From NCBI RefSeq assembly GCF_003019035.1, contig NZ_CP027447.1: 64,000 nt of DNA, one strand, 5' to 3'. Position 1 is the stretch's first letter. Each line of letters begins with the position of its first letter. Origin of the DNA: Escherichia coli. GTDB lineage: Bacteria; Pseudomonadota; Gammaproteobacteria; Enterobacterales; Enterobacteriaceae. Positions 2,802 through 59,236 of this stretch are shown in pieces. The notes beneath the pieces are model-generated. The model was not told the origin of the DNA and searched no databases. It saw only the letters and a program-made list of their open reading frames with translations. Made by a program: the position numbers and the translations under genes.

Positions 2802-4124
2802 TTATCCGTTAGTTGTTAAGTTATTGACCTTGTTGGCGGCAATAACAAAAGGTAAATAGATCATTGTCGCCACACCTAAACATAAAAAACCCACCAGTAA
2901 CGCCAGCCAGTTTCCCCCGGTTCCGAGGAAAGCAATTAAAGGTCCGGGCGTAGTCCAGGGCACGGCATAAGCAACCGGTGGAATAATTTCCATCGAAACA
3001 AAGAAGTAACCAATGGCACAGTTAACAATAGGAACCATAATAAACGGCACCATCATGATGGGGTTAAGTACAATAGGAAGGCCGAACATTATCGGTTCAT
3101 TGATATTGAAAATACCGGGGATAAATGACATTTTTGCCAGATCACGGTATTCCGCACGCTTAGAAGCGATAAAAATAGCCAACAATAACCCCAACGTCAT
3201 ACCTGAACCGCCGCAGTTGGCGAATGCATCATTAATAGAAGTCCAGGTAATCGGATATGGCGCGCCCCAGGTAGTACCGTGTTGAGCGGCCCAGGAGAGA
3301 TTCTCCAGATTAGCCTCAGAAAAAACGGTTTCTCGAATTGCCGACGTTGTATTAGGTCCGTGGATCCCCAGCACCCAGAGGAAATTACCCACAGCCCCCA
3401 GGATAATTACCGCAAAGATATTCGTTCCCATATGTTTGAGCGGCGTCTGGATTAATGTGTAAATGAGGTCGTTTAATCCTGCCGGGGATATCAGTGTCAG
3501 GCAATAATTAAGTGCGGAAAAGAACACCATGACAAAAAATATTGGCAATAAAACTTTAAATGAACGCGCTACCGCAGGAGGTACAGCTGCCGGCATCGTG
3601 ATGGTGATTTTGGGGTTTCGAGCTAAGCGACAAAATATTTCACTGGTGATCAGTGCAACGATAACAGCAACAAATAACCCCTGCGCGCCGAGATATTTGG
3701 TCGTCAGGAATGCTTGCCCATCTATCATCTGATATGGCGTATATACAATAAAAAATGCTCCTATTGCCGTTAATCCGCATAAAAGATCATCTTGCTCATA
3801 GCTAATCGCCATATTCCTGGCGACCAGGAAAGCAATCATAATTGACATGATATTTACAGAACCATTCATTACCGGAGTAAAAATAGCTTGTGCTTTTTCA
3901 AGGTTGGGGAAAACGCTGTTCAGATGCAGCAGCCCGGCAATAAAGCCGTCGGGCGATAATATGGCAAAGTTAATTAATATAATTAATGAGCTTGCCATGA
4001 TAATTGGAAACGTAAAAACGAATCCATCTCTCACCGCTGCAACATGTTTTTGTGAGTTTAACTTGATAGCAACTGGAACAAGAAAACGTTCCATTCCACG
4101 TTCGAATGAGGCCATTAATCCCAT
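2802..4124 (-). CDS. PTS lactose/cellobiose-family EIIC permease
   Basis: 440 aa polytopic membrane protein between IIB and IIA genes. Confidence 0.8.
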   Translation of the reverse strand: MGLMASFERGMERFLVPVAIKLNSQKHVAAVRDGFVFTFPIIMASSLIILINFAILSPDGFIAGLLHLNSVFPNLEKAQAIFTPVMNGSVNIMSIMIAFLVARNMAISYEQDDLLCGLTAIGAFFIVYTPYQMIDGQAFLTTKYLGAQGLFVAVIVALITSEIFCRLARNPKITITMPAAVPPAVARSFKVLLPIFFVMVFFSALNYCLTLISPAGLNDLIYTLIQTPLKHMGTNIFAVIILGAVGNFLWVLGIHGPNTTSAIRETVFSEANLENLSWAAQHGTTWGAPYPITWTSINDAFANCGGSGMTLGLLLAIFIASKRAEYRDLAKMSFIPGIFNINEPIMFGLPIVLNPIMMVPFIMVPIVNCAIGYFFVSMEIIPPVAYAVPWTTPGPLIAFLGTGGNWLALLVGFLCLGVATMIYLPFVIAANKVNNLTTNG

Positions 4125-4747: not shown

Positions 4748-5446
4748 GTGATTTTTCAAAAGATTGCCCGCTTACTTAAATCCGAGATCAATGGCTATTC
4801 ATGGCATGTTGGTGATTTGTTGCCGTCAGAAGCTGAACTCGCTGTTCGTTATAATGTTTCGCGTAATACCCTGCGTAAGGCATTATCCTTGCTGGAAGGC
4901 GAAGGAATTATTCATAGAAAGCATGGTTCAGGAACATACATTCAAAAAAAGAATTTTGTTGCACACATTGATCACATGAACAGTTTCAGTGAAATTGCGC
5001 ATAAAAGCGGCAAAGAGGCAGGGAGTCAGATTATGAAATTTGAAGTGCAGGATGCTTCTCCCCCTATTGCGACTGAGCTGAATTTAGTGACTGGTGAGCA
5101 GGTTTATTACATAAAGAGACTGCGATTCATTGAGGATAATGCAGCACAATTAGAAGAAACGTGGATGTCAGTGGCACGTTTTCCTGATTTAACCGTAGCA
5201 CATATGCAAAAATCCAAATTTTCGTATATTGAGAACGAATGCGGGATCAAAATCATTGGCACCTTTGAAACTTTCTCCCCGACTTTTCCTACCCCAGAAA
5301 TCGCCAGTATTTTACGGATCAGCCCACGGGATCCCATACTTAAAATTCAGACCCAGGCTGTGGACAGTAACTCTATTCCGCTGGATTATTCGTTACTTTA
5401 CAGCAATATTTTCGAGTTCCAGGTAAAGTACTTTTTCCCGCGATAA
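4748..5446 (+). CDS. GntR/HutC-family transcriptional regulator (probable regulator of the divergent PTS operon)
   Basis: 232 aa; N-terminal GntR HTH (LPSEAELAVRYNVSRNTLRKALSLLEGEGII) with UTRA-like C-terminal domain; GTG start at 4748. Confidence 0.7.
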   Translation: MIFQKIARLLKSEINGYSWHVGDLLPSEAELAVRYNVSRNTLRKALSLLEGEGIIHRKHGSGTYIQKKNFVAHIDHMNSFSEIAHKSGKEAGSQIMKFEVQDASPPIATELNLVTGEQVYYIKRLRFIEDNAAQLEETWMSVARFPDLTVAHMQKSKFSYIENECGIKIIGTFETFSPTFPTPEIASILRISPRDPILKIQTQAVDSNSIPLDYSLLYSNIFEFQVKYFFPR

Positions 5447-7898: not shown

Positions 7899-7994
7899 AT
7901 GCTGGGTAATATGAATGTTTTTATGGCCGTACTGGGAATAATTTTATTTTCTGGGTTTCTGGCCGCGTATTTCAGCCACAAATGGGATGACTAA
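7899..7994 (+). CDS. mgtS: Small membrane protein MgtS (YneM), 31 aa
   Basis: Hand-translated ATG at 7899 after ggag SD: MLGNMNVFMAVLGIILFSGFLAAYFSHKWDD, stop TAA 7992-7994. Below the size cut-off of the ORF track. Confidence 0.75.
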   Translation: MLGNMNVFMAVLGIILFSGFLAAYFSHKWDD

Positions 7995-8024
7995 TGAACG
8001 GAGATAATCCCTCACCTAACCGGC

Positions 8025-8060
8025 CCCTTGTTACAGTTGTGTACAAGGGGCCTGATTTTT
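8025..8060 (+). terminator. Rho-independent terminator downstream of mgtS
   Basis: ccccttgt ... acaagggg stem followed by cctgattttt. Confidence 0.55.
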
Positions 8061-8065
8061 ATGAC

Positions 8066-8172
8066 GGCGAAAAAAAACCGCCAGTAAACCGGCGGTGAAT
8101 GCTTGCATGGATAGATTTGTGTTTTGCTTTTACGCTAACAGGCATTTTCCTGCACTGATAACGGATCGTTGA
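8066..8172 (-). ncRNA. mgrR: Candidate PhoP-regulated sRNA MgrR
   Basis: Minus-strand terminator hairpin ccgccggtttactggcgg plus a run of eight T (plus coords about 8066-8096) roughly 100 nt downstream of a PhoP-box-like direct repeat; location between mgtS and dgcZ agrees with where MgrR is reported. Ends are approximate. Confidence 0.5.
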
Positions 8173-8199
8173 CACAGTAGCATCAGTTTTCTCAATGAA

Positions 8200-8220
8200 T
8201 GTTAAACGGAGCTTAAACTC
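8200..8220 (-). promoter_or_regulatory. PhoP box-like direct repeat (AGTTTA-n5-CGTTTA) for mgrR
   Basis: Minus strand reads GAGTTTAAGCTCCGTTTAAC; hexamer repeats spaced 11 bp apart, overlapping the 3' end of dgcZ. Confidence 0.45.
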
Positions 8221-15784: not shown

Positions 15785-17068
15785 TTAAAGACTTCTGGAA
15801 GGTTGCGCAGCTCTGACAACATGCGGTTGATCTTCCGCAGCGTCTTCCAGCGCACTTAAATCACGGTCTTTCACTTCTGGCATTTTCAGCGCAGAAATTA
15901 AACCAATCACTGAATATGCCATGATCATAATTGCGATCGGATACCAGGATTCCGTCATGGTGCAGAAAATACCCGCCAGGATAGGACCAAAACCGGAAGC
16001 GATAAGACCACCAATTTCTTTAGAAATGGCCATCCGGGTAAAGCGGTTTTTACAGCCGAACATTTCTGCCATGGTAATGTTTTCCAGAGCAAATAATCCA
16101 AGCACCGCACAGTTATGAATCACAATCAGTGCAACCATAATGGTGCTCGGGGCATAGCTTTTATCTACGATGATAGAAAGCATTGGCCATGCCAGCACAA
16201 TCGCAGAGGTATTCATAATAATATACGGGATCCGGCGACCAATTTTATCGGATAACCAACCAAGGAACGGAATGGTCATAAAGCCGAGAATCGAACTGAT
16301 CATCAATGCATCTGTTGGAATTGCTTTGTTAAACAATAACGTCTGCACTAAATAGCCTGCAAGGAAAGTCTGAATTAAACCTGAGTTACCAGCCTGACCA
16401 AAACGCAGCCCTGTTGCCAGCCAGAAGGATTTGCTCTGGAACATGCTACCAGCAGGTGCAGGTTTTGCTGTAGGTTGGTTGCTGTCGTTAACCTTCTCAA
16501 AGACCGGGCTTTCTTTCAGATTCATACGCAACCAGATAGCAAAGACCATCACGACAACGCTCGCCAGGAACGGTATACGCCATCCCCACGCCAACAGTTC
16601 CTCTTTACTGAGAATGAAGAACATAAAGGCCCAGATTGCCGTTGCGCTCAAGGTTCCGCAGTTAGTCCCCATAGCAACAAATGAGGAGATAATTCCGCGC
16701 TTACCTTTTGGCGCATATTCCGCCAGCATCGTACCGGCACCGGAAATTTCCGCGCCTGCCCCCAGCCCCTGAATAATACGCAGCGTCACCAGCAAAATTG
16801 GCGCAAACACACCAATTTGTGCATAGGTCGGCAGCACACCAATTAAGGTGGTACAGATCCCCATCATGGTGATGGTAATAAAGAGCACTTTTTTACGCCC
16901 TATTCTGTCGCCCATTTTGCCGAAAATAAATGCTCCGACAATACGTGCCACATAACCTGCACCATAGGTTCCCATTGCCAGAATTAACGCCATTGCCGTT
17001 GACGATTCAGGAAAAAATATTTCATGAAAAACTAACGCTGCGCCGAGCGAATATAACTGGAAATCCAT
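15785..17068 (-). pseudogene. ydfJ: MFS (metabolite:H+ symporter family) transporter YdfJ, 5'-truncated at the prophage junction
   Basis: 427 aa ORF begins MDFQLYSLGAALVFHEIFFP, which aligns to the conserved (E)WFDFxxYG segment at the start of TM1 in ProP/KgtP-type transporters, so roughly 25-45 N-terminal residues are missing; an in-frame stop lies two codons upstream and prophage DNA follows. Confidence 0.75.
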
Positions 17069-17671
17069 AATTCACAGGTGTTTTTTCCCATCCTGTGGTT
17101 TCCTTGGCGTTTTCTAGGTTTTTTCAGATAGTTGCATTTTTTAAAAAGCATCCTAAGTTCGATCTCAGTGTCTATCTGGGGCCTATTTCTGTCCCATATA
17201 TGCCCCAAAAAAACTCCCCAACAGATAAGTAGTTTTTTCATGGATTTATGCGTAAAATCAAGAACGGCTGGAAATCATTCAATACTCACACTATCGAAAA
17301 ATTTACCAGCCAACCGCAGCACGTTCTTGCATAAGGCGTGTCTGCGGTTTTTCAACTATTCAGATACATCACTCCCATCACATTCATTCCTCCGCATCAA
17401 AGGCATATAGGCTATATCACCTTGATATTTTTCTTTTTCAGATAAAAACTGTTATCTATGTATACTTTTAAACCCAATCCGTGTAGAGTCTCTGCATAAG
17501 ATAGTTTGCAGTTGCCGCTTCAGCTTGCGCCATAAACCGCCTGATTTTTGCTGCCACCTGTTAGCATTCCTGTATACCTGAAACGACAATGTTTATCTAC
17601 GAACTTTAAGAACACCCAAGATAAAAATTGTCAACTATATCATATATAACACATTACTAATTCGAGGCTAT

Positions 17672-17785
17672 ATGAACAGCATACTGATAATCACTTCTCT
17701 CCTTATCATATTCAGCATTTTTAGTCATGCCCTAATAAAATTAGGGATTGGCATATCCAATAACCCAGACAAAACCGATGTATAA
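17672..17785 (+). CDS. Hypothetical 37 aa hydrophobic peptide upstream of ydfK
   Basis: cgaggctat-ATG with good SD spacing; [37 protein letters not shown]; single predicted TM helix; AT-rich context just inside the prophage end. Confidence 0.35.
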
Positions 17786-17853
17786 GTCAACATATCCTGA
17801 ATCAGACATACAATATCGCAATGAAAATCAATAATATTTTAAGGAATATCTTC

Positions 17854-18087
17854 ATGAAATCAAAAGACACCCTAAAGTGGTTCCCTGCGCAGCTTCCTGA
17901 AGTAAGAATTATCCTAGGGGATGCTGTAGTGGAAGTAGCAAAACAGGGAAGACCTATCAATACCAGAACATTGCTTGATTACATTGAAGGAAACATAAAG
18001 AAAAAATCATGGCTGGATAACAAAGAATTATTACAAACAGCGATATCAGTTCTTAAAGACAACCAAAATTTAAATGGTAAAATGTAA
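17854..18087 (+). CDS. ydfK: Cold-shock-induced prophage protein YdfK (YnaE paralogue)
   Basis: ORF 17821..18087; from MKSKDTLKWFPAQLPEVRIILGD the 77 aa protein matches recalled YdfK. Confidence 0.8.
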   Translation: MKSKDTLKWFPAQLPEVRIILGDAVVEVAKQGRPINTRTLLDYIEGNIKKKSWLDNKELLQTAISVLKDNQNLNGKM

Positions 18088-18403
18088 TATAATAAACTTA
18101 CTTTTTTATCATTTTTCCACTTTAACAACATTTTGCTCCACTTTTCCACGACCAAACAACTTGAAATCTGGTTAAAATAACACGCAACACTATTCTTCTT
18201 CCTTGAGTCCGCCCGGAACTCGAAAAACAAACCGAGTTAAAGCCATTTCTCACAAAACCGATTTTGGGTCTCACCAAAATTACGGGGTTGCATACGCATT
18301 CGTTTATTTTCGAACGTGTACATACAAATATGCACAAAAATAATCAAAATTATTTTCTGAGATGCATTATGATATGAACACCAATTTCGTATAGAGTCTC
18401 ACT

Positions 18404-18994
18404 ATGTCTCGAATTTTTGCTTACTGTCGGATATCAACGCTGGATCAGACCATCGAAAATCAACGCCGGGAAATCGAAAGTGCAGGTTTTAAAATCAAAC
18501 CTCAGCAAATAATCGAAGAACACATTAGCGGCTCAGCAGCAACCAGTGAGCGTCCTGGTTTTAACCGGTTGCTTGCTCGCCTGAAATGTGGTGATCAATT
18601 GATTGTGACAAAACTGGATCGCCTTGGTTGTAATGCAATGGATATCAGGAAAACAGTGGAACAACTGACCGAAACAGGTATCAGAGTGCATTGCTTAGCA
18701 TTGGGGGGCATTGACCTGACCAGTCCAACAGGAAAAATGATGATGCACGTAATTTCAGCAGTCGCTGAATTTGAACGAGACCTTTTACTTGAACGCACTC
18801 ATTCCGGGATAGTAAGAGCCCGCGGCGCAGGGAAACGTTTTGGTCGACCACCTGTGTTAAATGAAGAACAGAAACAGGTGGTATTCGAACGAATTAAGTC
18901 AGGTGTAAGTATAAGTGCCATTGCCCGGGAATTCAAAACCTCGCGGCAAACCATTTTAAGAGCCAAAGCAAAACTTCAGACACCTGATATATAA
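18404..18994 (+). CDS. pinQ: Serine recombinase / DNA invertase Pin (Gin/Hin/Cin family)
   Basis: 196 aa; N-terminal catalytic serine motif YCRISTLDQ and C-terminal HTH; matches recalled PinQ/PinE. Confidence 0.9.
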
Positions 18995-19094
18995 AAAATA
19001 ATCTCGGTGTGAGATGCTTTACGTCTTCCAAGCCCCCTTCCTTGCCGTAAATGGAAAGATACATCTAATTATAGAATTTATATGTTTTACCCTA

Positions 19095-19210
19095 CGGCAG
19101 TGCTGGCCATTCAATATCCTGTGCAGTTGACGTATCAACACGGTTCAGCAATACCCGATACTTTTTCCATGCTTCCAGCAACGAGGTTTCTTCCTCCGTT
19201 GCATATACAG
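19095..19210 (-). pseudogene. 3' remnant of a tail fibre assembly gene (Tfa C-terminal domain only)
   Basis: Minus-strand frame encodes ...[36 protein letters not shown]-stop, close to the conserved Tfa C-terminus (lambda Tfa ...[33 protein letters not shown]), but the upstream part of the ORF ([12 protein letters not shown]...) is unrelated and overlaps the next gene. Confidence 0.6.
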
Positions 19211-19221
19211 CCCACCTTTTT

Positions 19222-19515
19222 TCACCCACGATTAACCAACAGCCAGACCAGCAGACACGCCACCACCGGCACAGCAAAATCCATCAGGCTTGCCACATCC
19301 CACGCGCGCGGATCAAAACCGCCCCACCACGGCATATTCATTCGCTTGCCATGCCCGAACATTTCAATCCAGCGATATTCTGCCTGGGTATGTTCACGCG
19401 CAATGAAGAACGTACAACCGGCTATCGCTCCGTAAGCCCAGTTTCCGGTAAAAAGACCAACCAGTATCTGCGCAGCCACAGCACAAAGTGCATGAAGTAA
19501 GGGGCTTATATCCAT
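19222..19515 (-). CDS. Hypothetical small membrane protein (about three TM segments) downstream of the tail fibre gene
   Basis: 97 aa; [39 protein letters not shown]... and C-terminal [13 protein letters not shown] hydrophobic segments; follows stf and the 92 aa ORF on the same strand with short spacers. Confidence 0.5.
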
Positions 19516-19527
19516 TATTTCCTCCTT

Positions 19528-19806
19528 TCAGCTCCATTCCCGAAGCGGTGTTTCCAGCTCCACGACATAATCAGAGAATACAGAAACATCAAACAAGTCA
19601 TCAAGAATGCGAATGTTGACAAAATAACCGTTATTCCGGATACAGACAGGTTCTCCCTCTTCAGTTACCCCTGTTTCTGTGTAGGTGAAACCAATTTCAT
19701 CGACTAACAGTTTATTCTGGAGGTCTTCATCTTCCTCCCAGTCAAGAGATGACAGGAAGGATTTAAACTCTCTGTTACCAGGAAATTTCAAAGTTAAATC
19801 TTTCAT
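19528..19806 (-). CDS. Hypothetical acidic small protein, translationally coupled to the tail fibre gene (possible fibre chaperone)
   Basis: 92 aa; start overlaps the stf stop (ATGA overlap at 19803-19806); acidic, no Tfa-like motifs. Confidence 0.5.
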   Translation of the reverse strand: MKDLTLKFPGNREFKSFLSSLDWEEDEDLQNKLLVDEIGFTYTETGVTEEGEPVCIRNNGYFVNIRILDDLFDVSVFSDYVVELETPLREWS

Positions 19807-21833
19807 ACTGCCTCCTTGATTTGCCTGTCATTTAATTCTTTAAACCAGACTCTGAAATTTCTGATGTGTCCAAACAAATGACGCGTTCCTGCTGCGGTCT
19901 GCCCACCAAACCGGTACGATGTTGCTGTAACTCCAAATATTTTACCATTAAGGTTTGTTGTATAATTACCATTGCATATTGCATTTACTGATAAATCAGA
20001 TTTAGCTCTCACACCCACAATGAACCTTTCTCCATCTGAGGAAATTTGTGGCTGAACCATTCCTACGTTGGCGCTTATCTTTCCTGTTGAAACAAACCCC
20101 AGCGATAAATAATTATCATCAATACTGTGCCCTCCAACATCAAATATCCTTGGCGCAACATTGGGCGGTGTACTCCAGTTCCTCCTTACTTCGCACAATA
20201 CTGTAAAAGGCCGTGTTGACAGGTTATTCGCCGAGGGGATAGTAACCACATCACTTGCGCGTGTTGTTGGCATTGTAGTTACAATAAATGACGATGCCGT
20301 ATTGCCCAGTTCAATTTGCGGCGTCGTCATGGTTAATGTTGAGTCATCATAGAATGGCTCATTACTTATTTTATTTGTCATATAAAAAGCACAGTTAACG
20401 GTATCAATGTCCGTATTAGCTGTATAAGTGGCCTCATAGTAGGTCCACTCGCCCTGTTGTTCAGCTTTGGCTGTTATAAGGGATGTATTACCGCTTACTG
20501 TTGCGATCCGGGTATCCAGATCAAGATAAGAGTCAGCAGAGAATGTATCTGTTCCACCAATAATAACTGAAACTCTTAACCTGCATCGTGCTTTAGCGCC
20601 TTTAACCCGGCACGAAAAAGTGAAACATTCACCACTTGCCAGCGGGAATCTGTCTGCTGCAACCACACCATGCACAGTATAGCCACCTGTTGTTCCCACT
20701 ATACTTTCCGTGGGTGTCACCGTGGCATAATTGAACCCCTGTTTATCAGTGCCAAATGTTTTATTCAGTGCGGAATGAACAGTCCATGAGTCTGGTTTAT
20801 TTGAGTTCCTCAGATAATTTGTCCTCTGTCCTTCAATCAATAAGCCATCGCGCTCAAATCGCGGTTCGTCAACTTCAGCAAGCTTGAGTTGGCCGGACTT
20901 ATTAATATACGTTGCTGTTGAAGCACGTTTAAACTTAACAATCTTGTCGCCTGGCATTGTTATTTCATCGTCACCAATAACAATCTTTTTATAAGATGGC
21001 GAAAAACCCGTAATCATATCCAGCGAATCGTTAAACGGTATCCACACATCAGGCAGCGGCGGCACTATATTCGCATAGGGCTCTGCAGTCACTTCCGCTG
21101 CGGCTTCTGCGCGGTCTGCCGCCTTTTCAGCTCGTGTCGCTGCCGACAGAGCCTCATCCTTTTTCTGCCCGGCCTTTGTTGCGTCTGCTGCGGCCTCCCG
21201 CGCTTTTGTGGTGGCGACTCCGGCATTTTCAGCGGCTGACTCTGCATTACGGCGGGAAGCCTCTTCACTGTCTGCGGAGGCTTCTTCTGACGCACGGGCA
21301 TTTGTCTCTGAACGTTCTGCCGCTGTTGCTGCGTTTTGTGCGGCTGTTTTTGAAGAAGCTGCCGCTTTCGCGCTGTTACCTGCATTCGTCTCTGATGTTT
21401 TCGCCGCGTTCCTGGACGATGCCGCTGCTGTTTCTGATTTCTTTGCTGCCGCTGCGCTCTGAGAGGCGGCTTCAGCGTTGCGTGCTGCTTCTTCCACCAT
21501 TGCCTCAAAACGACGCAATGCCTCCGGCATGACATCATCTTCCGTCATGGCACCGAGAAAATCATTCAGCGTACCAGGTCTGGAACCTTCATAGACGGTA
21601 ATGGTTCCGGCATGTGAAGGCGGAAAACCTTCAACCAGCAGGGTGACGCTGTACTGGCCATACTCGACATCCATGCTGTAACGCCCGGCTTCATCCGGAT
21701 TTTCAGAGGCTACCGTGTTCACCAGTACCGTGGTGCTGTTACGCTTTGCCTTCAGTTGAATAGTGCAGTTCTGTATTGGTTTTCCCGCACCATCTTTCAG
21801 CACACCTGAGATTTTTACTGCTGCCATATCCAC
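19803..21833 (-). CDS. stf: Side tail fibre protein (Stf-like): lambda-type N-terminal anchor and Ala-rich shaft, divergent C-terminal receptor-binding region
   Basis: 676 aa; N-terminus M(DM)AAVKISGVLKDGAGKPIQNCTIQLKA... resembles lambda Stf; long Ala/Ser/Glu-rich repeat region (aa 120-240); C-terminal ~430 aa unlike what I recall for lambda Stf. Confidence 0.8.
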   Translation of the reverse strand: MDMAAVKISGVLKDGAGKPIQNCTIQLKAKRNSTTVLVNTVASENPDEAGRYSMDVEYGQYSVTLLVEGFPPSHAGTITVYEGSRPGTLNDFLGAMTEDDVMPEALRRFEAMVEEAARNAEAASQSAAAAKKSETAAASSRNAAKTSETNAGNSAKAAASSKTAAQNAATAAERSETNARASEEASADSEEASRRNAESAAENAGVATTKAREAAADATKAGQKKDEALSAATRAEKAADRAEAAAEVTAEPYANIVPPLPDVWIPFNDSLDMITGFSPSYKKIVIGDDEITMPGDKIVKFKRASTATYINKSGQLKLAEVDEPRFERDGLLIEGQRTNYLRNSNKPDSWTVHSALNKTFGTDKQGFNYATVTPTESIVGTTGGYTVHGVVAADRFPLASGECFTFSCRVKGAKARCRLRVSVIIGGTDTFSADSYLDLDTRIATVSGNTSLITAKAEQQGEWTYYEATYTANTDIDTVNCAFYMTNKISNEPFYDDSTLTMTTPQIELGNTASSFIVTTMPTTRASDVVTIPSANNLSTRPFTVLCEVRRNWSTPPNVAPRIFDVGGHSIDDNYLSLGFVSTGKISANVGMVQPQISSDGERFIVGVRAKSDLSVNAICNGNYTTNLNGKIFGVTATSYRFGGQTAAGTRHLFGHIRNFRVWFKELNDRQIKEAV

Positions 21834-43184: not shown

Positions 43185-43455
43185 GATGTTACCGTAGTAT
43201 GTGAGTATCCATCGAATAGACACCAAGCAAAAAAGCTCCCGAAGGAGCCTTCATTTTCACTTTTTTAAATCCAACGACAGACGGCTGGCATTTAAGTATT
43301 GTGAAATATTATCAAATGTAATCATCATTGATTTACAAAAGATACATTTTGCCCCGAAAGGATTCATGTCAGAAACATCAAAAGATGATGTTCTATACTG
43401 GGAACCATGACAACACGGGCATCTAAAGTGAATATGGTTTGTAATATTGTCTACC

Positions 43456-43668
43456 TCAAAGCGCCACTACATGAACAGCGGCAGGACCTTTAGGTCCGTT
43501 CTCAATACCAAATTCAACTTCCTGATTCTCAGTTAATGTTTTGAAATCGTTGCTCTGAATTGCTGAGAAATGGACAAACACATCTTTGCTGCCATCTTTC
43601 GGCGTGATGAAACCAAAACCTTTTTCAGGGTTAAACCATTTCACTAAACCAGTCATTTTGTTAGACAT
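43456..43668 (-). CDS. cspI: Cold shock protein CspI
   Basis: 70 aa CspA-family protein with RNP motifs KGFGFI and VFVHF; matches recalled CspI. Confidence 0.85.
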
Positions 43669-44030
43669 AATTATTACCTTTTGAAGAAATTAGCCCTTGG
43701 GCAGAATGGTCCGAAAAAAAATATCAGAGAGAAAAACCAACAAGGAAATCTCAAGAGGTACAAATAATAAAATTATAACAATGACTGCTTCAGATAAATT
43801 TGTAACAAACCAGAACACCATTAACGCATGATTAACCACCCATAGCAAGGATTACTTTTGTAAAGAAAAACACAGCAATGAAAGAATAGCTTTATTTATT
43901 AATAAAACGTGTCATTCTGATTAAGACCTTTTATCTTACCCTTAAGATTTCAGGAATTTTGGCTCATGGAAGAGTCCTTTTTATTTAAATTTTACATTCC
44001 GCGATGTAAATGTTCCGATTTAATATTACC

Positions 44031-46052: not shown

Positions 46053-46339
46053 GGGTTTGAGATTGTGGTGCTTTTTGTGGGAGTCATCCACTTACGCACT
46101 TTGTTTTGCCATGCCAGCAGTTAGCTTCTGCTGTAAAACTATTCATGCAGCAAACCTGCACTTCACCACAATGGTTAGCATACTTTTCCTGATTAAGATT
46201 TTGCCAAATATGCTAGCCATTGTTTCATGTATTGGACCTCCTTACTTTTTATTAAAGAGATCCAATATTCACTACTCTGTCCGTATCTCTACTCAGGCAT
46301 CAGCCTTCTTCGTTATCGTATACAGACGAGCGATGAATT

Positions 46340-46555
46340 TTAATCAGTAATGATGACATTTGCTGCTGCAGGACCTTTAGCACCACTCTCTATAGAGAAG
46401 GTAACCTTTTGACCTTCAAATAAGGTTCGATAATTATCATTCTGAATCGCAGAAAAATGCACAAACACATCTTTACTACCATCAACAGGAGAAATAAAGC
46501 CGAAACCTTTATCAGCGTTAAACCATTTTACTAAACCAGTCATTTTATTTGACAT
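46340..46555 (-). CDS. cspB: Cold shock protein CspB
   Basis: 71 aa CspA-family protein; matches recalled CspB. Confidence 0.85.
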
Positions 46556-46855
46556 TCTACATTCCTTAACTTGAGCCTTTCGGCATAAATGGTTTGCATA
46601 ACAGAAACGACTTCGTACTTAATTGGAGAGACTCAAAGAAGGAATAAGTGAATAACACCTGAAATGAGAACTGCTTTAGTAAACTACTTCGTATATCGTC
46701 TGTTCTTCAAACCGACGCAATCATTAACGCATAGTTGAACATATGAAGCAATGTTTATTTTAGACATCCAGCCATCTTCAACCCCATCAAAAAACTATAG
46801 CTTTCTTCAGGAACGTGTGTATAGTGCGCCAAGTTATCAGTATTAAGGAATTTTT

Positions 46856-51825: not shown

Positions 51826-53674
51826 AGTTAACATTACAAGATATAAGTAATGGACGCACTCCCAATTAGTCTATTTAAATCGCCACGAGTTTAACTGACA
51901 ACCCATGATCAATTATGAATTGCAACTATTTCTGTAGTCACTTTTGTGGGGACAGTCCACAAAACTGCCAACTTCCGCTTCTTGCTCTTAGCGGACATTA
52001 GCATAGGCTATTTACCATAACGCCTCATTACGCGCACCGCCCAGACTGACTCAGCGCGTTTCTGGCATATCCCCGGTAAAACAAGTAACAAACCACCCGA
52101 AAATGAACACCAGAAACGCGACTTAAGAATCTACCCTATGAATGGATATGCACTCAACCGAATCGATCTTGGTTTCAATCTTTTTTATCGGGATCAGGCT
52201 TCTTTTTAGGTAACTTCGGGGGCTTAACTTGCTGATGACTTTGCGTTCGGCGCGTAAGCCAGGGATGGTCAGCTTTAGGTTTAACATAGTATTTTGAGCG
52301 TAAATCAATACGGGCATTATCCACTCGTTCATGGACACTCTTTTCATCATCCAGTGGTATAGGCTCCGGGCCATCAACATACTTTTCCCAGCCCAGCGCT
52401 TTCCCGTCATACAGAACGTTAATTTCACCGTCAAAGTTCTCGCATACAGTAACAACCGAATGCCTAAGTCGATATCCCCGGCCCTCACTGCGTACCTGAA
52501 ACGCACTGCTTTTGTACTGGAAAGTGAGATTTTTAGACAGAACGCGCTTCGCCTGTAGGCTGAAGATATAACCCAGTTCCTCTTCAGAATGGTGCACATC
52601 AAGATGAGCATTATCAGTAGTACGAGGCGACGTAGCGAACCGGTTGTTATAGGCTTCAATAAAGGTCGGCAACCATGCATTTGCTGTTTCAATATCACTG
52701 ATATTCTGAAGCCGCATTTCTTTGACCAGCCTGTCCTGTAGTGTCTGATTGGCGCGCTCTACCCGCCCTTTTGCCTGCGGGCTGTTGGCATGGATTGGCT
52801 CGATGCCCAGTGTCTTTATCGCACGAGTGAACTGGGTCAGCTCACCTTCCCGCTCTGGGTTATTTACCCTGAATATACTGTGTCTATCAGAGTAGAGAGC
52901 GAGCGGTACGCCATGATCATTAAGGTAACCCCGGAGGGTTTCCATGTAAGCCCGGGTTGTTTCAGCAGGCACAAAACGCAACGCCATCAACGCACTGGTG
53001 GCATCATCAATGAAAACGATCAGTGTACATCTGGGGCCTCGATTTTCAAACCAGTCATGAGGTGAGCCATCAATCTGGATCAGTTCACCGTAAGATGGTC
53101 GTCGCATGCGGCGTTGATATATACGGGCAATTTTACGACGGCGTTCACGCCATAACCCCTCTTCTATCATCCACTTTCTGAGAGTTTCAACGGATAAAGA
53201 TAAACCGTGTATCTCGCGCAATTTTTCGCACGCAAACGTAGGTCCAAAATCAGCGTAACGGCCTTTGAGGAGTGAAATTACTGTTGCTCTGAATTCAGTA
53301 GAAAAGGAATTATTAGGACGCTTTCCACGTCGGTGGGAAACCAGACCAGAAGGCCCTTCATTTCTATACCGTTGCACCAGACGTTTAACCTGCCGAATAG
53401 AAATGCCAATGCGTGCCGCAGCTTGTTCCTGAATAATCTGAAGTCGGTGGAGTTCCTTATGACTCATCGTAACAGTCTCTTTGATCATGAAAAATCCCCC
53501 AGAGAATTGTCTGGGGACATTTTAGAATGGTTCAAAGGGGACATTACAGCTTGGTGTTAACAATAGCCTGCTTCTCCGTGCCTTTCGGCACGTAAGAGGC
53601 TAACCTACATGTGTCTAGCATGAAATTGGCCTCAGATTAATGTTAAGCGTCTTGCAGGACGCGTAATGTTAACT
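51826..53674. mobile_element. Insertion sequence (family uncertain, IS481/ISNCY-like); boundaries tentative
   Basis: Single 437 aa DDE transposase ORF flanked by a 12-bp perfect inverted repeat agttaacattac (51826-51837) / gtaatgttaact (53663-53674); no clear target-site duplication seen. Confidence 0.35.
52175..53488 (-). CDS. DDE transposase with N-terminal HTH and rve-type integrase core
   Basis: 437 aa; HTH near N-terminus (IGISIRQVKRLVQRY); catalytic-triad candidates in IQIDGS, YSDRHSIF and KGRVERANQTL. Confidence 0.8.
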   Translation of the reverse strand: MIKETVTMSHKELHRLQIIQEQAAARIGISIRQVKRLVQRYRNEGPSGLVSHRRGKRPNNSFSTEFRATVISLLKGRYADFGPTFACEKLREIHGLSLSVETLRKWMIEEGLWRERRRKIARIYQRRMRRPSYGELIQIDGSPHDWFENRGPRCTLIVFIDDATSALMALRFVPAETTRAYMETLRGYLNDHGVPLALYSDRHSIFRVNNPEREGELTQFTRAIKTLGIEPIHANSPQAKGRVERANQTLQDRLVKEMRLQNISDIETANAWLPTFIEAYNNRFATSPRTTDNAHLDVHHSEEELGYIFSLQAKRVLSKNLTFQYKSSAFQVRSEGRGYRLRHSVVTVCENFDGEINVLYDGKALGWEKYVDGPEPIPLDDEKSVHERVDNARIDLRSKYYVKPKADHPWLTRRTQSHQQVKPPKLPKKKPDPDKKD

Positions 53675-53822
53675 GGGGCTTTTCTCTATCTGCCGTTGGT
53701 GTCCATGCCCGAGGCAGATAGCCTCAAGCACCCGCAGTCATTCTACTTAACTAAGATTTCCCCGCAAACCGTTTTTGTCCAGCACAGTAAATATCCAACT
53801 AAACCAATGGAGTTCGCTGTAT

Positions 53823-59183: not shown

Positions 59184-59236
59184 TTTCTGGTGACGTTTGG
59201 CGGTATCAGTTTTACTCCGTGACTGCTCTGCCGCCC
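59184..59236 (+). ncRNA. dicF: DicF small RNA (ftsZ-targeting antisense sRNA)
   Basis: tttctggtgacgtttggcggtatcagttttactccgtgactgctctgccgccc followed by ttttt matches the 53-nt DicF sequence I recall. Confidence 0.85.

Follow-up and report, generated by a model that had tools for sequence, protein, structure and literature searches.

Most of the characterised small membrane proteins of Escherichia coli bind to a larger membrane protein and modulate it. In the temperate phage HK97, the superinfection-exclusion protein gp15 is a membrane protein encoded by a moron. Small hydrophobic helices which are present in multiple copies and are found in prophages are also known among the type I toxins (Hok, Ldr, Ibs, TisB and ZorO, and PepG1 of Staphylococcus), and in these properties they are similar to YnfT, the 37-aa protein which is the subject of this study. 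The described counterpart of YnfT is YnaM, which is encoded in the Rac prophage of E. coli K-12. The two 37-aa proteins are identical and have the same accession (WP_120795384.1), and the gene context is also the same (ynaM - ynaE/ydfK - pin - tfa). The two loci differ in their att sites, since ynaM is located at attR of Rac, next to uspF/ttcC, while ynfT is located at attL of Qin, inside ydfJ.

The ORF analysed here belongs to a window of 64 kb, by which we mean the whole stretch of E. coli DNA that was analysed (64,000 nt). It is essentially certain that this ORF is the known prophage gene ynfT, the Qin-type copy of the YnaM/YnfT small-protein gene. Thus, the gene is not novel: it was found in 2016 by ribosome profiling, confirmed in 2018 by tagging, and is now annotated routinely. 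The explanation as a whole, comprising the identity of the gene, its translation, the selection acting on it and a putative role in the membrane, is in our opinion very probable, while its individual parts differ in strength and are discussed separately below.

Identity, translation and conservation of ynfT

According to the original prediction, the 37-aa ORF on the plus strand was unannotated. The ORF is indeed present and its sequence is exactly as given there, but the gene had not escaped annotation: it is ynfT in RefSeq, it is covered by Pfam and NCBIfam models, it has a UniProt entry via the identical YnaM, and VanOrsdel et al. 2018 include it among the detected small proteins of their Table 1. 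Using megablast, the region 17400-18100 was detected in 2,808 of the 5,426 complete E. coli genomes, where it coincides with two RefSeq features, "ynfT: YnaM/YnfT family protein" as well as "ydfK: cold shock protein YdfK". The ORF corresponds to the CDS ynfT with the accession given above both in a K-12-like genome and in strain E2865, the latter being 100% identical to the window, and the RefSeq gene order is truncated ydfJ - ynfT - ydfK - pinQ - tfaQ - tail-fibre genes. The ynfT product is matched along its entire length (residues 1-37 of 37) by the Pfam family PF23676 "YnaM" with 96.2 bits (cut-off 27) and is also recognised by NCBIfam NF041477 with 63.9 bits (cut-off 35). Its exact sequence is found in a cluster named "Protein YnaM", which contains the UniProt entry YNAM_ECOLI. 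The coordinates of the features considered in this work are summarised in Table 1.

Table 1. Features of the ynfT locus and of other parts of the 64-kb window, with the evidence on which each of them is based.
Feature	Position in the window	Strand	Basis
STnc560	7988-8201	-	Rfam, above gathering score
Approximate prophage/chromosome junction (attL)	17057-17068		Start of mEp460 homology, end of truncated ydfJ
Intrinsic terminator, hairpin and U-run (UUUUU)	17312-17354	+	Fold of -20.7 kcal/mol, z -4.03
Candidate promoter TTCAGA-18-TATACT	17437-17466	+	Consensus scan; published gSELEX peaks nearby
53 bp upstream of ynfT which align with the Salmonella phage cassette, containing AGATAAAAATTGTC	17619-17671	+	blastn block, alignment, motif search
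Shine-Dalgarno core GAGG	17664-17667	+	Sequence, duplex energy, kept in the Salmonella phage copy
ynfT CDS, 37 aa (stop codon included in the coordinates)	17672-17785	+	ORF list, RefSeq, Pfam/NCBIfam, dN/dS, TetRP, SPA
ydfK, 77 aa, "cold shock protein YdfK"	17854-18087	+	RefSeq, TetRP start, dN/dS 0.079, co-occurrence
pinQ, serine invertase, downstream of the cassette	18404-18994	+	ORF list, RefSeq
cspA thermoregulators	43429-43814, 46324-46716	-	Rfam, above gathering score, at prophage csp genes
sok antitoxin	53562-53733	-	Rfam, above gathering score
DicF	59185-59236	+	Rfam, above gathering score

The names in use may mislead a search for the gene. VanOrsdel et al. 2018 (PMC6001520) give the name ynfQ in their Table 1 to the ORF located between ydfJ and ydfK, while a 2024 publication about uncharacterised "y" genes of E. 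coli (PMC11551758) names the gene at 1632890 ynfT. This publication and RefSeq both place ynfQ elsewhere in Qin.

Translation of ynfT in E. coli K-12 has been shown by published TetRP and SPA data. Nakahigashi et al. 2016 (PMC4909307), who applied tetracycline ribosome profiling (TetRP), list in their supplement the novel sORF P_ECK1536_1537_1630914 at 1630914-1631027 (U00096.2), the 37-aa sequence of which equals that of ynfT, so that a start site at the ynfT start codon is on record. The Rac twin is listed in the same supplement at 1432430-1432317. In the work of VanOrsdel et al. 2018 (PMC6001520), a chromosomal SPA tag was attached to the ORF 1632890-1633003, the sequence of which is identical to that of YnfT, and the protein was detected. 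Weaver et al. 2019 observed YnaM-SPA at a higher level than the majority of newly found small proteins, and reported the start codon of YnaM to be without a peak under retapamulin or Onc112.

The latter result may be seen in the light of the duplication in Rac and Qin. In the K-12-like genome, the block shared by the two prophages has a length of 2,561 bp (window 17310-19870) and an identity of 99.0%, and it comprises ynfT/ynaM, ydfK/ynaE, pin and tfa. The ORFs of ynaM and ynfT differ by three nucleotides, all of them synonymous, and across 17620-17694, start codon included, the two copies are identical. Since the copies are nearly identical, short-read methods (Ribo-seq, RNA-seq, variant calling) miss signals in this region or assign them to the wrong copy. 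Initiation footprints in particular would map to both Rac and Qin and may be discarded, which could explain the missing peak under retapamulin or Onc112. Variant calling is a further case: in phage-resistant derivatives of MG1655, "mutations" were listed in ydfK (1633223) and pinQ (1633629) (PMC12844343), which fall exactly on differences between the Rac and Qin paralogues (window 18005 and 18411). Because of this coincidence we rejected the changes in ydfK as functional evidence; judged from the sequences, the changes look like mis-mapping or gene conversion rather than like selected mutations.

The start codon of the 37-aa ORF is ATG, and it is preceded by the GAGG core at a distance of 4 nt. 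The Shine-Dalgarno (SD) sequence had been described as well spaced and strong. The strength was overstated, since the energy of pairing with the 3' end of the 16S rRNA (-5.9 kcal/mol) is ordinary among real genes: it is in the top 9.6% among all 2,378 ATGs in the window, while 41% of the long-ORF starts have an SD which is as strong or stronger. The ribosome-binding site is adequate, not strong, and it is typical of genuine gene starts. Folding of the mRNA leaves the SD unpaired in both the MFE and the centroid prediction.

In Salmonella phage 118970_sal3, a 37-aa homologue of YnfT is encoded at 5054-5167 and is followed by a ydfK homologue. At the nucleotide level the two ynfT copies are 81% identical, with 14 synonymous and 8 non-synonymous differences; 14 of the 22 differences are at third codon positions, and dN/dS is 0.092, which is similar to the value for ydfK (0.079). 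As a sequence-based estimate, this ratio shows that strong purifying selection acts on the YnfT protein sequence, and related phages and prophages have retained the reading frame. Since occupancy of the start codon by ribosomes has been published as well, neither of the two conditions which would have refuted the original prediction applies. In the Salmonella phage copy, the GAGG core and its distance of 4 nt to the ATG are also kept, while the flanks differ. A perfect 7-bp hairpin within ynfT (CCCTAAT-AAA-ATTAGGG, 17730-17746) was dismissed, since the Salmonella copy does not have it.

It was also considered whether the AT-rich DNA could have given rise to this frame by chance, without a gene being present, because shuffling of the region often produces ORFs as long as this one. 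Among the shuffles of the 785-bp intergenic stretch 17069-17853, 77% contain an ORF that starts with ATG and has 37 codons or more, and therefore the length of the ynfT ORF alone is uninformative. However, the excess of third-position differences to the Salmonella phage copy, the conservation of the SD, and the published start peak in ribosome profiling together with the immunoblot detection speak against a chance frame, and this reading, to which we assign virtually no probability, was already refuted by the published data on translation. Because ynfT is conserved and because translation data were published, we accept it as a real gene.

YnfT was shown to be confined to prophages and phages of E. 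coli and Salmonella. An exhaustive HMMER scan of 1.84 billion representative proteins yielded four matches, all of them at least 81% identical, and a cluster look-up yielded one E. coli group with 164 members and one Salmonella group with 41 members. Since the family is tiny (four representatives), the comparative evidence rests essentially on two lineages. Across 15 YnfT variants, K23, the region of the GIG motif and the tail SNNPDKTD show little or no variation. A DNA search revealed eleven E. coli phage records with the ynfT-ydfK cassette. When YnfT was compared with phages by tblastn, only the C-terminal 15 residues were aligned, because the hydrophobic part of the protein is masked as low complexity.

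The ynfT-ydfK cassette and its expression signals

The homology between the window and the intact temperate phage mEp460 begins at 17057, and the truncated ydfJ ORF ends at 17068. The start of ynfT is approximately 615 bp inside the prophage edge, and 68 bp separate its end from ydfK. The location of the ORF in AT-rich DNA (34-36% GC) at a prophage edge and next to ydfK was thus described correctly in the original prediction. In mEp460 the order is xis - int - attP - ynfT - ydfK - pin - tfa - stf - lom, and the ynfT-ydfK cassette belongs to the accessory region of mEp460-like phages, with attP on one side and the tail-fibre invertase on the other. In 118970_sal3, in which the tail module differs and pin is absent, the homology is limited to window 17619-18091, which comprises the 53 bp preceding ynfT, the gene itself and the whole of ydfK. 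Since the homology to the Salmonella phage covers just these two genes, ynfT and ydfK move as one unit. In E. coli, ynfT was detected at 3,383 places in 2,803 genomes and ydfK at 3,370 places in 2,802 genomes, and ynfT is present in one to three copies per genome in approximately half of the complete E. coli genomes.

Strain ET474, in which the match ends at 17489, was considered as a marker of the att junction and rejected, because the break is due to an IS1-associated deletion inside the prophage. In this strain IS1 follows right after the position equivalent to 17489 of the window, and ynfT-ydfK-pin and a part of the tail-fibre gene are missing. Therefore, loss of ynfT-ydfK-pin is possible without obvious harm.

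Upstream of ynfT, a strong intrinsic terminator was detected exactly where the block common to Rac and Qin begins on its left side (17310). It was missed by a simple terminator scan and was revealed by folding with a z score. The terminator is located approximately 255 bp past the att core, and in mEp460 it follows int on the same strand at a distance of approximately 290 bp, a position which presumably resembles that of the sib/tI retroregulator of lambda. A sub-threshold match to the Rfam family CssrB on the minus strand (17315-17452; 25.3 bits, threshold 76) is carried by the terminator hairpin.

Because the terminator blocks plus-strand transcription coming from upstream, expression of ynfT in a lysogen needs a promoter within 17355-17671. 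A candidate promoter in this interval is given in Table 1. Further, peaks obtained in vitro with RNA polymerase by gSELEX were published at 1630638-1630740 (U00096.2); with the offset of 1976 derived from the TetRP coordinates, they convert to approximately 17396-17498 of the window and thus map between the terminator and the ynfT ORF. The number of promoter-like matches in the AT-rich stretch is not above chance (7, versus 5.8 +/- 2.5 in shuffles). A second promoter-like site is located between ynfT and ydfK (17787-17814), and a scan of the sequence between the two genes (17786-17853) revealed no terminator. In our literature search, no table of transcription start sites covering ynfT was found.

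Three copies of the 14-nt motif AGATAAAAAYTGTY are present in the 64-kb window, at 17440-17453 (+), 17585-17598 (-) and 17619-17632 (+), all within 193 bp in the region upstream of ynfT. The first copy overlaps the promoter-like site, and the third one is within the 53 bp which are shared with the Salmonella phage copy. The motif could be an operator for some regulator.

The partner gene ydfK deserves a closer look. Its longest ORF, with ATG at 17821 and 88 aa, corresponds to the older annotated start. By TetRP the start was moved by +33 nt to 17854 (PMC4909307), and RefSeq uses the resulting form of 77 aa. A cluster of Fur boxes was predicted at 1631071 in U00096.2 (PMC2189734), which is approximately position 17829 of the window; since the real start of ydfK is at 17854, this cluster is located upstream of the gene and not within it. 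Both ydfK and ynaE were reported as induced in the cold and in late stationary phase. The AlphaFold model of YdfK, built from an alignment of 15 sequences, has a pLDDT of 77.7 and has one clear neighbour in the PDB, E. coli YmgB/AriR (2OXL_A; TM 0.67/0.81, rmsd 2.0 A, probability 1.00, E 0.05), every other match having an E value of 2 or worse. At the sequence level no match of YdfK to the PDB was found. On the basis of the model, YdfK may be a Hha/YmgB-like small regulator rather than a protein of the Csp type.

Homologues of ydfK with 55-64% identity were found in Enterobacter, Limnobaculum and E. coli without ynfT, and therefore YdfK does not need YnfT. Upstream of these diverged homologues, at a distance of approximately 120-160 bp, the gene ynfU is transcribed divergently. 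This partner of the diverged ydfK homologues belongs to PF23499 and encodes a small zinc-ribbon protein. Several of the diverged homologues adjoin a gene for a GH94 glycosyl hydrolase of 2,860 aa or a phage lysis cassette.

Proposed role of YnfT and alternative readings

The original prediction of a single TM-like segment in the 37-aa peptide is supported by two analyses. The Kyte-Doolittle hydropathy, calculated in a 19-residue window, has its maximum of 2.52 at residues 4-22, and the AlphaFold model consists of one helix comprising residues 2-29, with pLDDT values of 93-94 over the first 20 residues. The predicted hydrophobic helix is followed by the polar, conserved tail SNNPDKTD, and the C-terminal tail is modelled at low confidence.

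We propose that the lysogen would produce YnfT from an own promoter located between the terminator and the ATG, and that ynfT is probably co-transcribed with ydfK. The peptide would be a small protein which crosses the inner membrane once, where it may bind and modulate a larger membrane protein, either a protein of the host or the entry machinery of an incoming phage. Modulation of a larger membrane protein would correspond to a function in lysogenic conversion ("moron" function). This mechanism, in which an inner-membrane peptide is made from the prophage, probably together with YdfK, and binds another membrane protein, is a tentative proposal which we regard as quite possible and still short of probable.

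Toxins, regulators and exclusion factors had been named in the original prediction as frequent roles of such peptides. A specific version of the small-membrane-protein explanation is that YnfT is a superinfection-exclusion or anti-phage factor, the helix of which blocks DNA entry or triggers abortive infection. This would fit to the location of ynfT in an accessory region of temperate phages, between attP and the tail-fibre genes, to its retention in approximately half of the complete E. coli genomes, and to the fact that YnfT is made in cells whose prophages are all defective. However, neither YnfT nor YdfK had a match in PADLOC-DB 2.0 at E values up to 1, PHROG 35882 is without an assigned function, and no phenotype was reported for YnfT; in addition, the constant partner YdfK is a soluble helical, cold-shock-linked protein and not a known defence component. 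We consider a role in exclusion unlikely.

Alternatively, YnfT could be the toxin of a type I toxin-antitoxin pair, which damages the membrane and is silenced by an antisense or divergent small RNA. In favour of this are the small size and the hydrophobicity of YnfT, its location in prophages, its copy number of up to three per genome and a weak match to the PepG1 model (E 0.055), and a promoter-like site on the minus strand (17863-17836) could give rise to an antisense transcript. However, the match to PepG1 (NF041589), which is the sole match to a toxin model, reaches 13.1 bits while the cut-off is 70. Further, no Rfam family overlaps the ynfT ORF at E values up to 10, although the sok antitoxin of the same prophage was cleanly detected, and a scan of the minus strand revealed no terminator-like site; a novel kind of antitoxin RNA could, however, escape such sequence-based searches. 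Neither strand folds better than its shuffles (z -0.84 for the mRNA and z -0.38 for the antisense strand), and the SD is unpaired. Finally, the chromosomally tagged protein accumulates to a fairly high level in ordinary LB cultures, although it has to be considered that a C-terminal tag could blunt the toxicity. Thus, YnfT is unlike the type I toxins in that no antitoxin RNA was found, the SD is exposed, the model score is far below the cut-off and the protein accumulates in normal growth. In the literature, we found no published test of YnfT toxicity on overexpression. Altogether, a type I toxin seems very unlikely.

It can also be imagined that not the product but the act of its translation is important, ynfT being a leader ORF which sets the expression of ydfK, for example in cold shock. 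The short distance to ydfK on the same strand, without a terminator found in between, the reported induction of ydfK/ynaE in the cold and in late stationary phase, and the RefSeq name "cold shock protein" are in line with such a role. On the other hand, the amino-acid sequence of YnfT is constrained (omega 0.092), notably in the C-terminal tail, the tagged peptide is stable and abundant, and homologues of ydfK occur without ynfT. No attenuator or significant structure was detected, the putative long 5' UTR having a z score of -0.11, and the ynfT locus contains no cspA-type thermoregulator, cold box or upstream box: Rfam RF01766 (cspA thermoregulator) had no match at 17300-17860 and two clear matches elsewhere in the window, and cold-box and upstream-box motifs are absent at the ynfT locus and present at the csp genes of the prophage. 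The cspA matches, as well as those to STnc560, sok and DicF, are expected for a Qin-type prophage and served as positive controls. We regard a leader function as very improbable. In summary, the toxin and the leader-peptide readings are both disfavoured because the searches revealed neither an antisense RNA nor an attenuator, nor a fold which would conceal the ribosome-binding site.

In a bolder version of the proposed membrane role, YnfT and YdfK would be a functional pair, in which the helix tethers YdfK, antagonises it or acts as a sensor for it, or else YnfT alone would be a new exclusion factor or toxin. The idea of a pair is based on the movement of the cassette between unrelated phage backbones and on the near-perfect co-occurrence of the two genes in E. 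coli. Such a pair would re-tune host gene expression or envelope properties in lysogens, either in the cold or late in stationary phase. It is tempting to speculate in this direction, but the chances of this version being correct are slim.

Comparison with known small membrane proteins

As a discovery ynfT matters little, since the gene is already known. The residual interest lies in the function of this very common, conserved and well-expressed prophage peptide of 37 aa, located beside the cold-induced gene ydfK. AcrZ, MgtS, MgrB and SgrT have much in common with YnfT: they are shorter than 50 aa, contain one hydrophobic helix and a short polar tail, and were detected with the help of the SPA tag. 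YnfT differs from these four proteins in that there is no sequence similarity, and in that it is phage-borne, occurs in E. coli and Salmonella, and is outside of a host regulon with a known signal. With gp15 of HK97, the likeness is in general features. Like gp15, YnfT is a small membrane protein (by prediction in the case of YnfT), it is encoded in a non-essential region of lambdoid phages, and it is expressed from the prophage; unlike gp15, it is always paired with ydfK.
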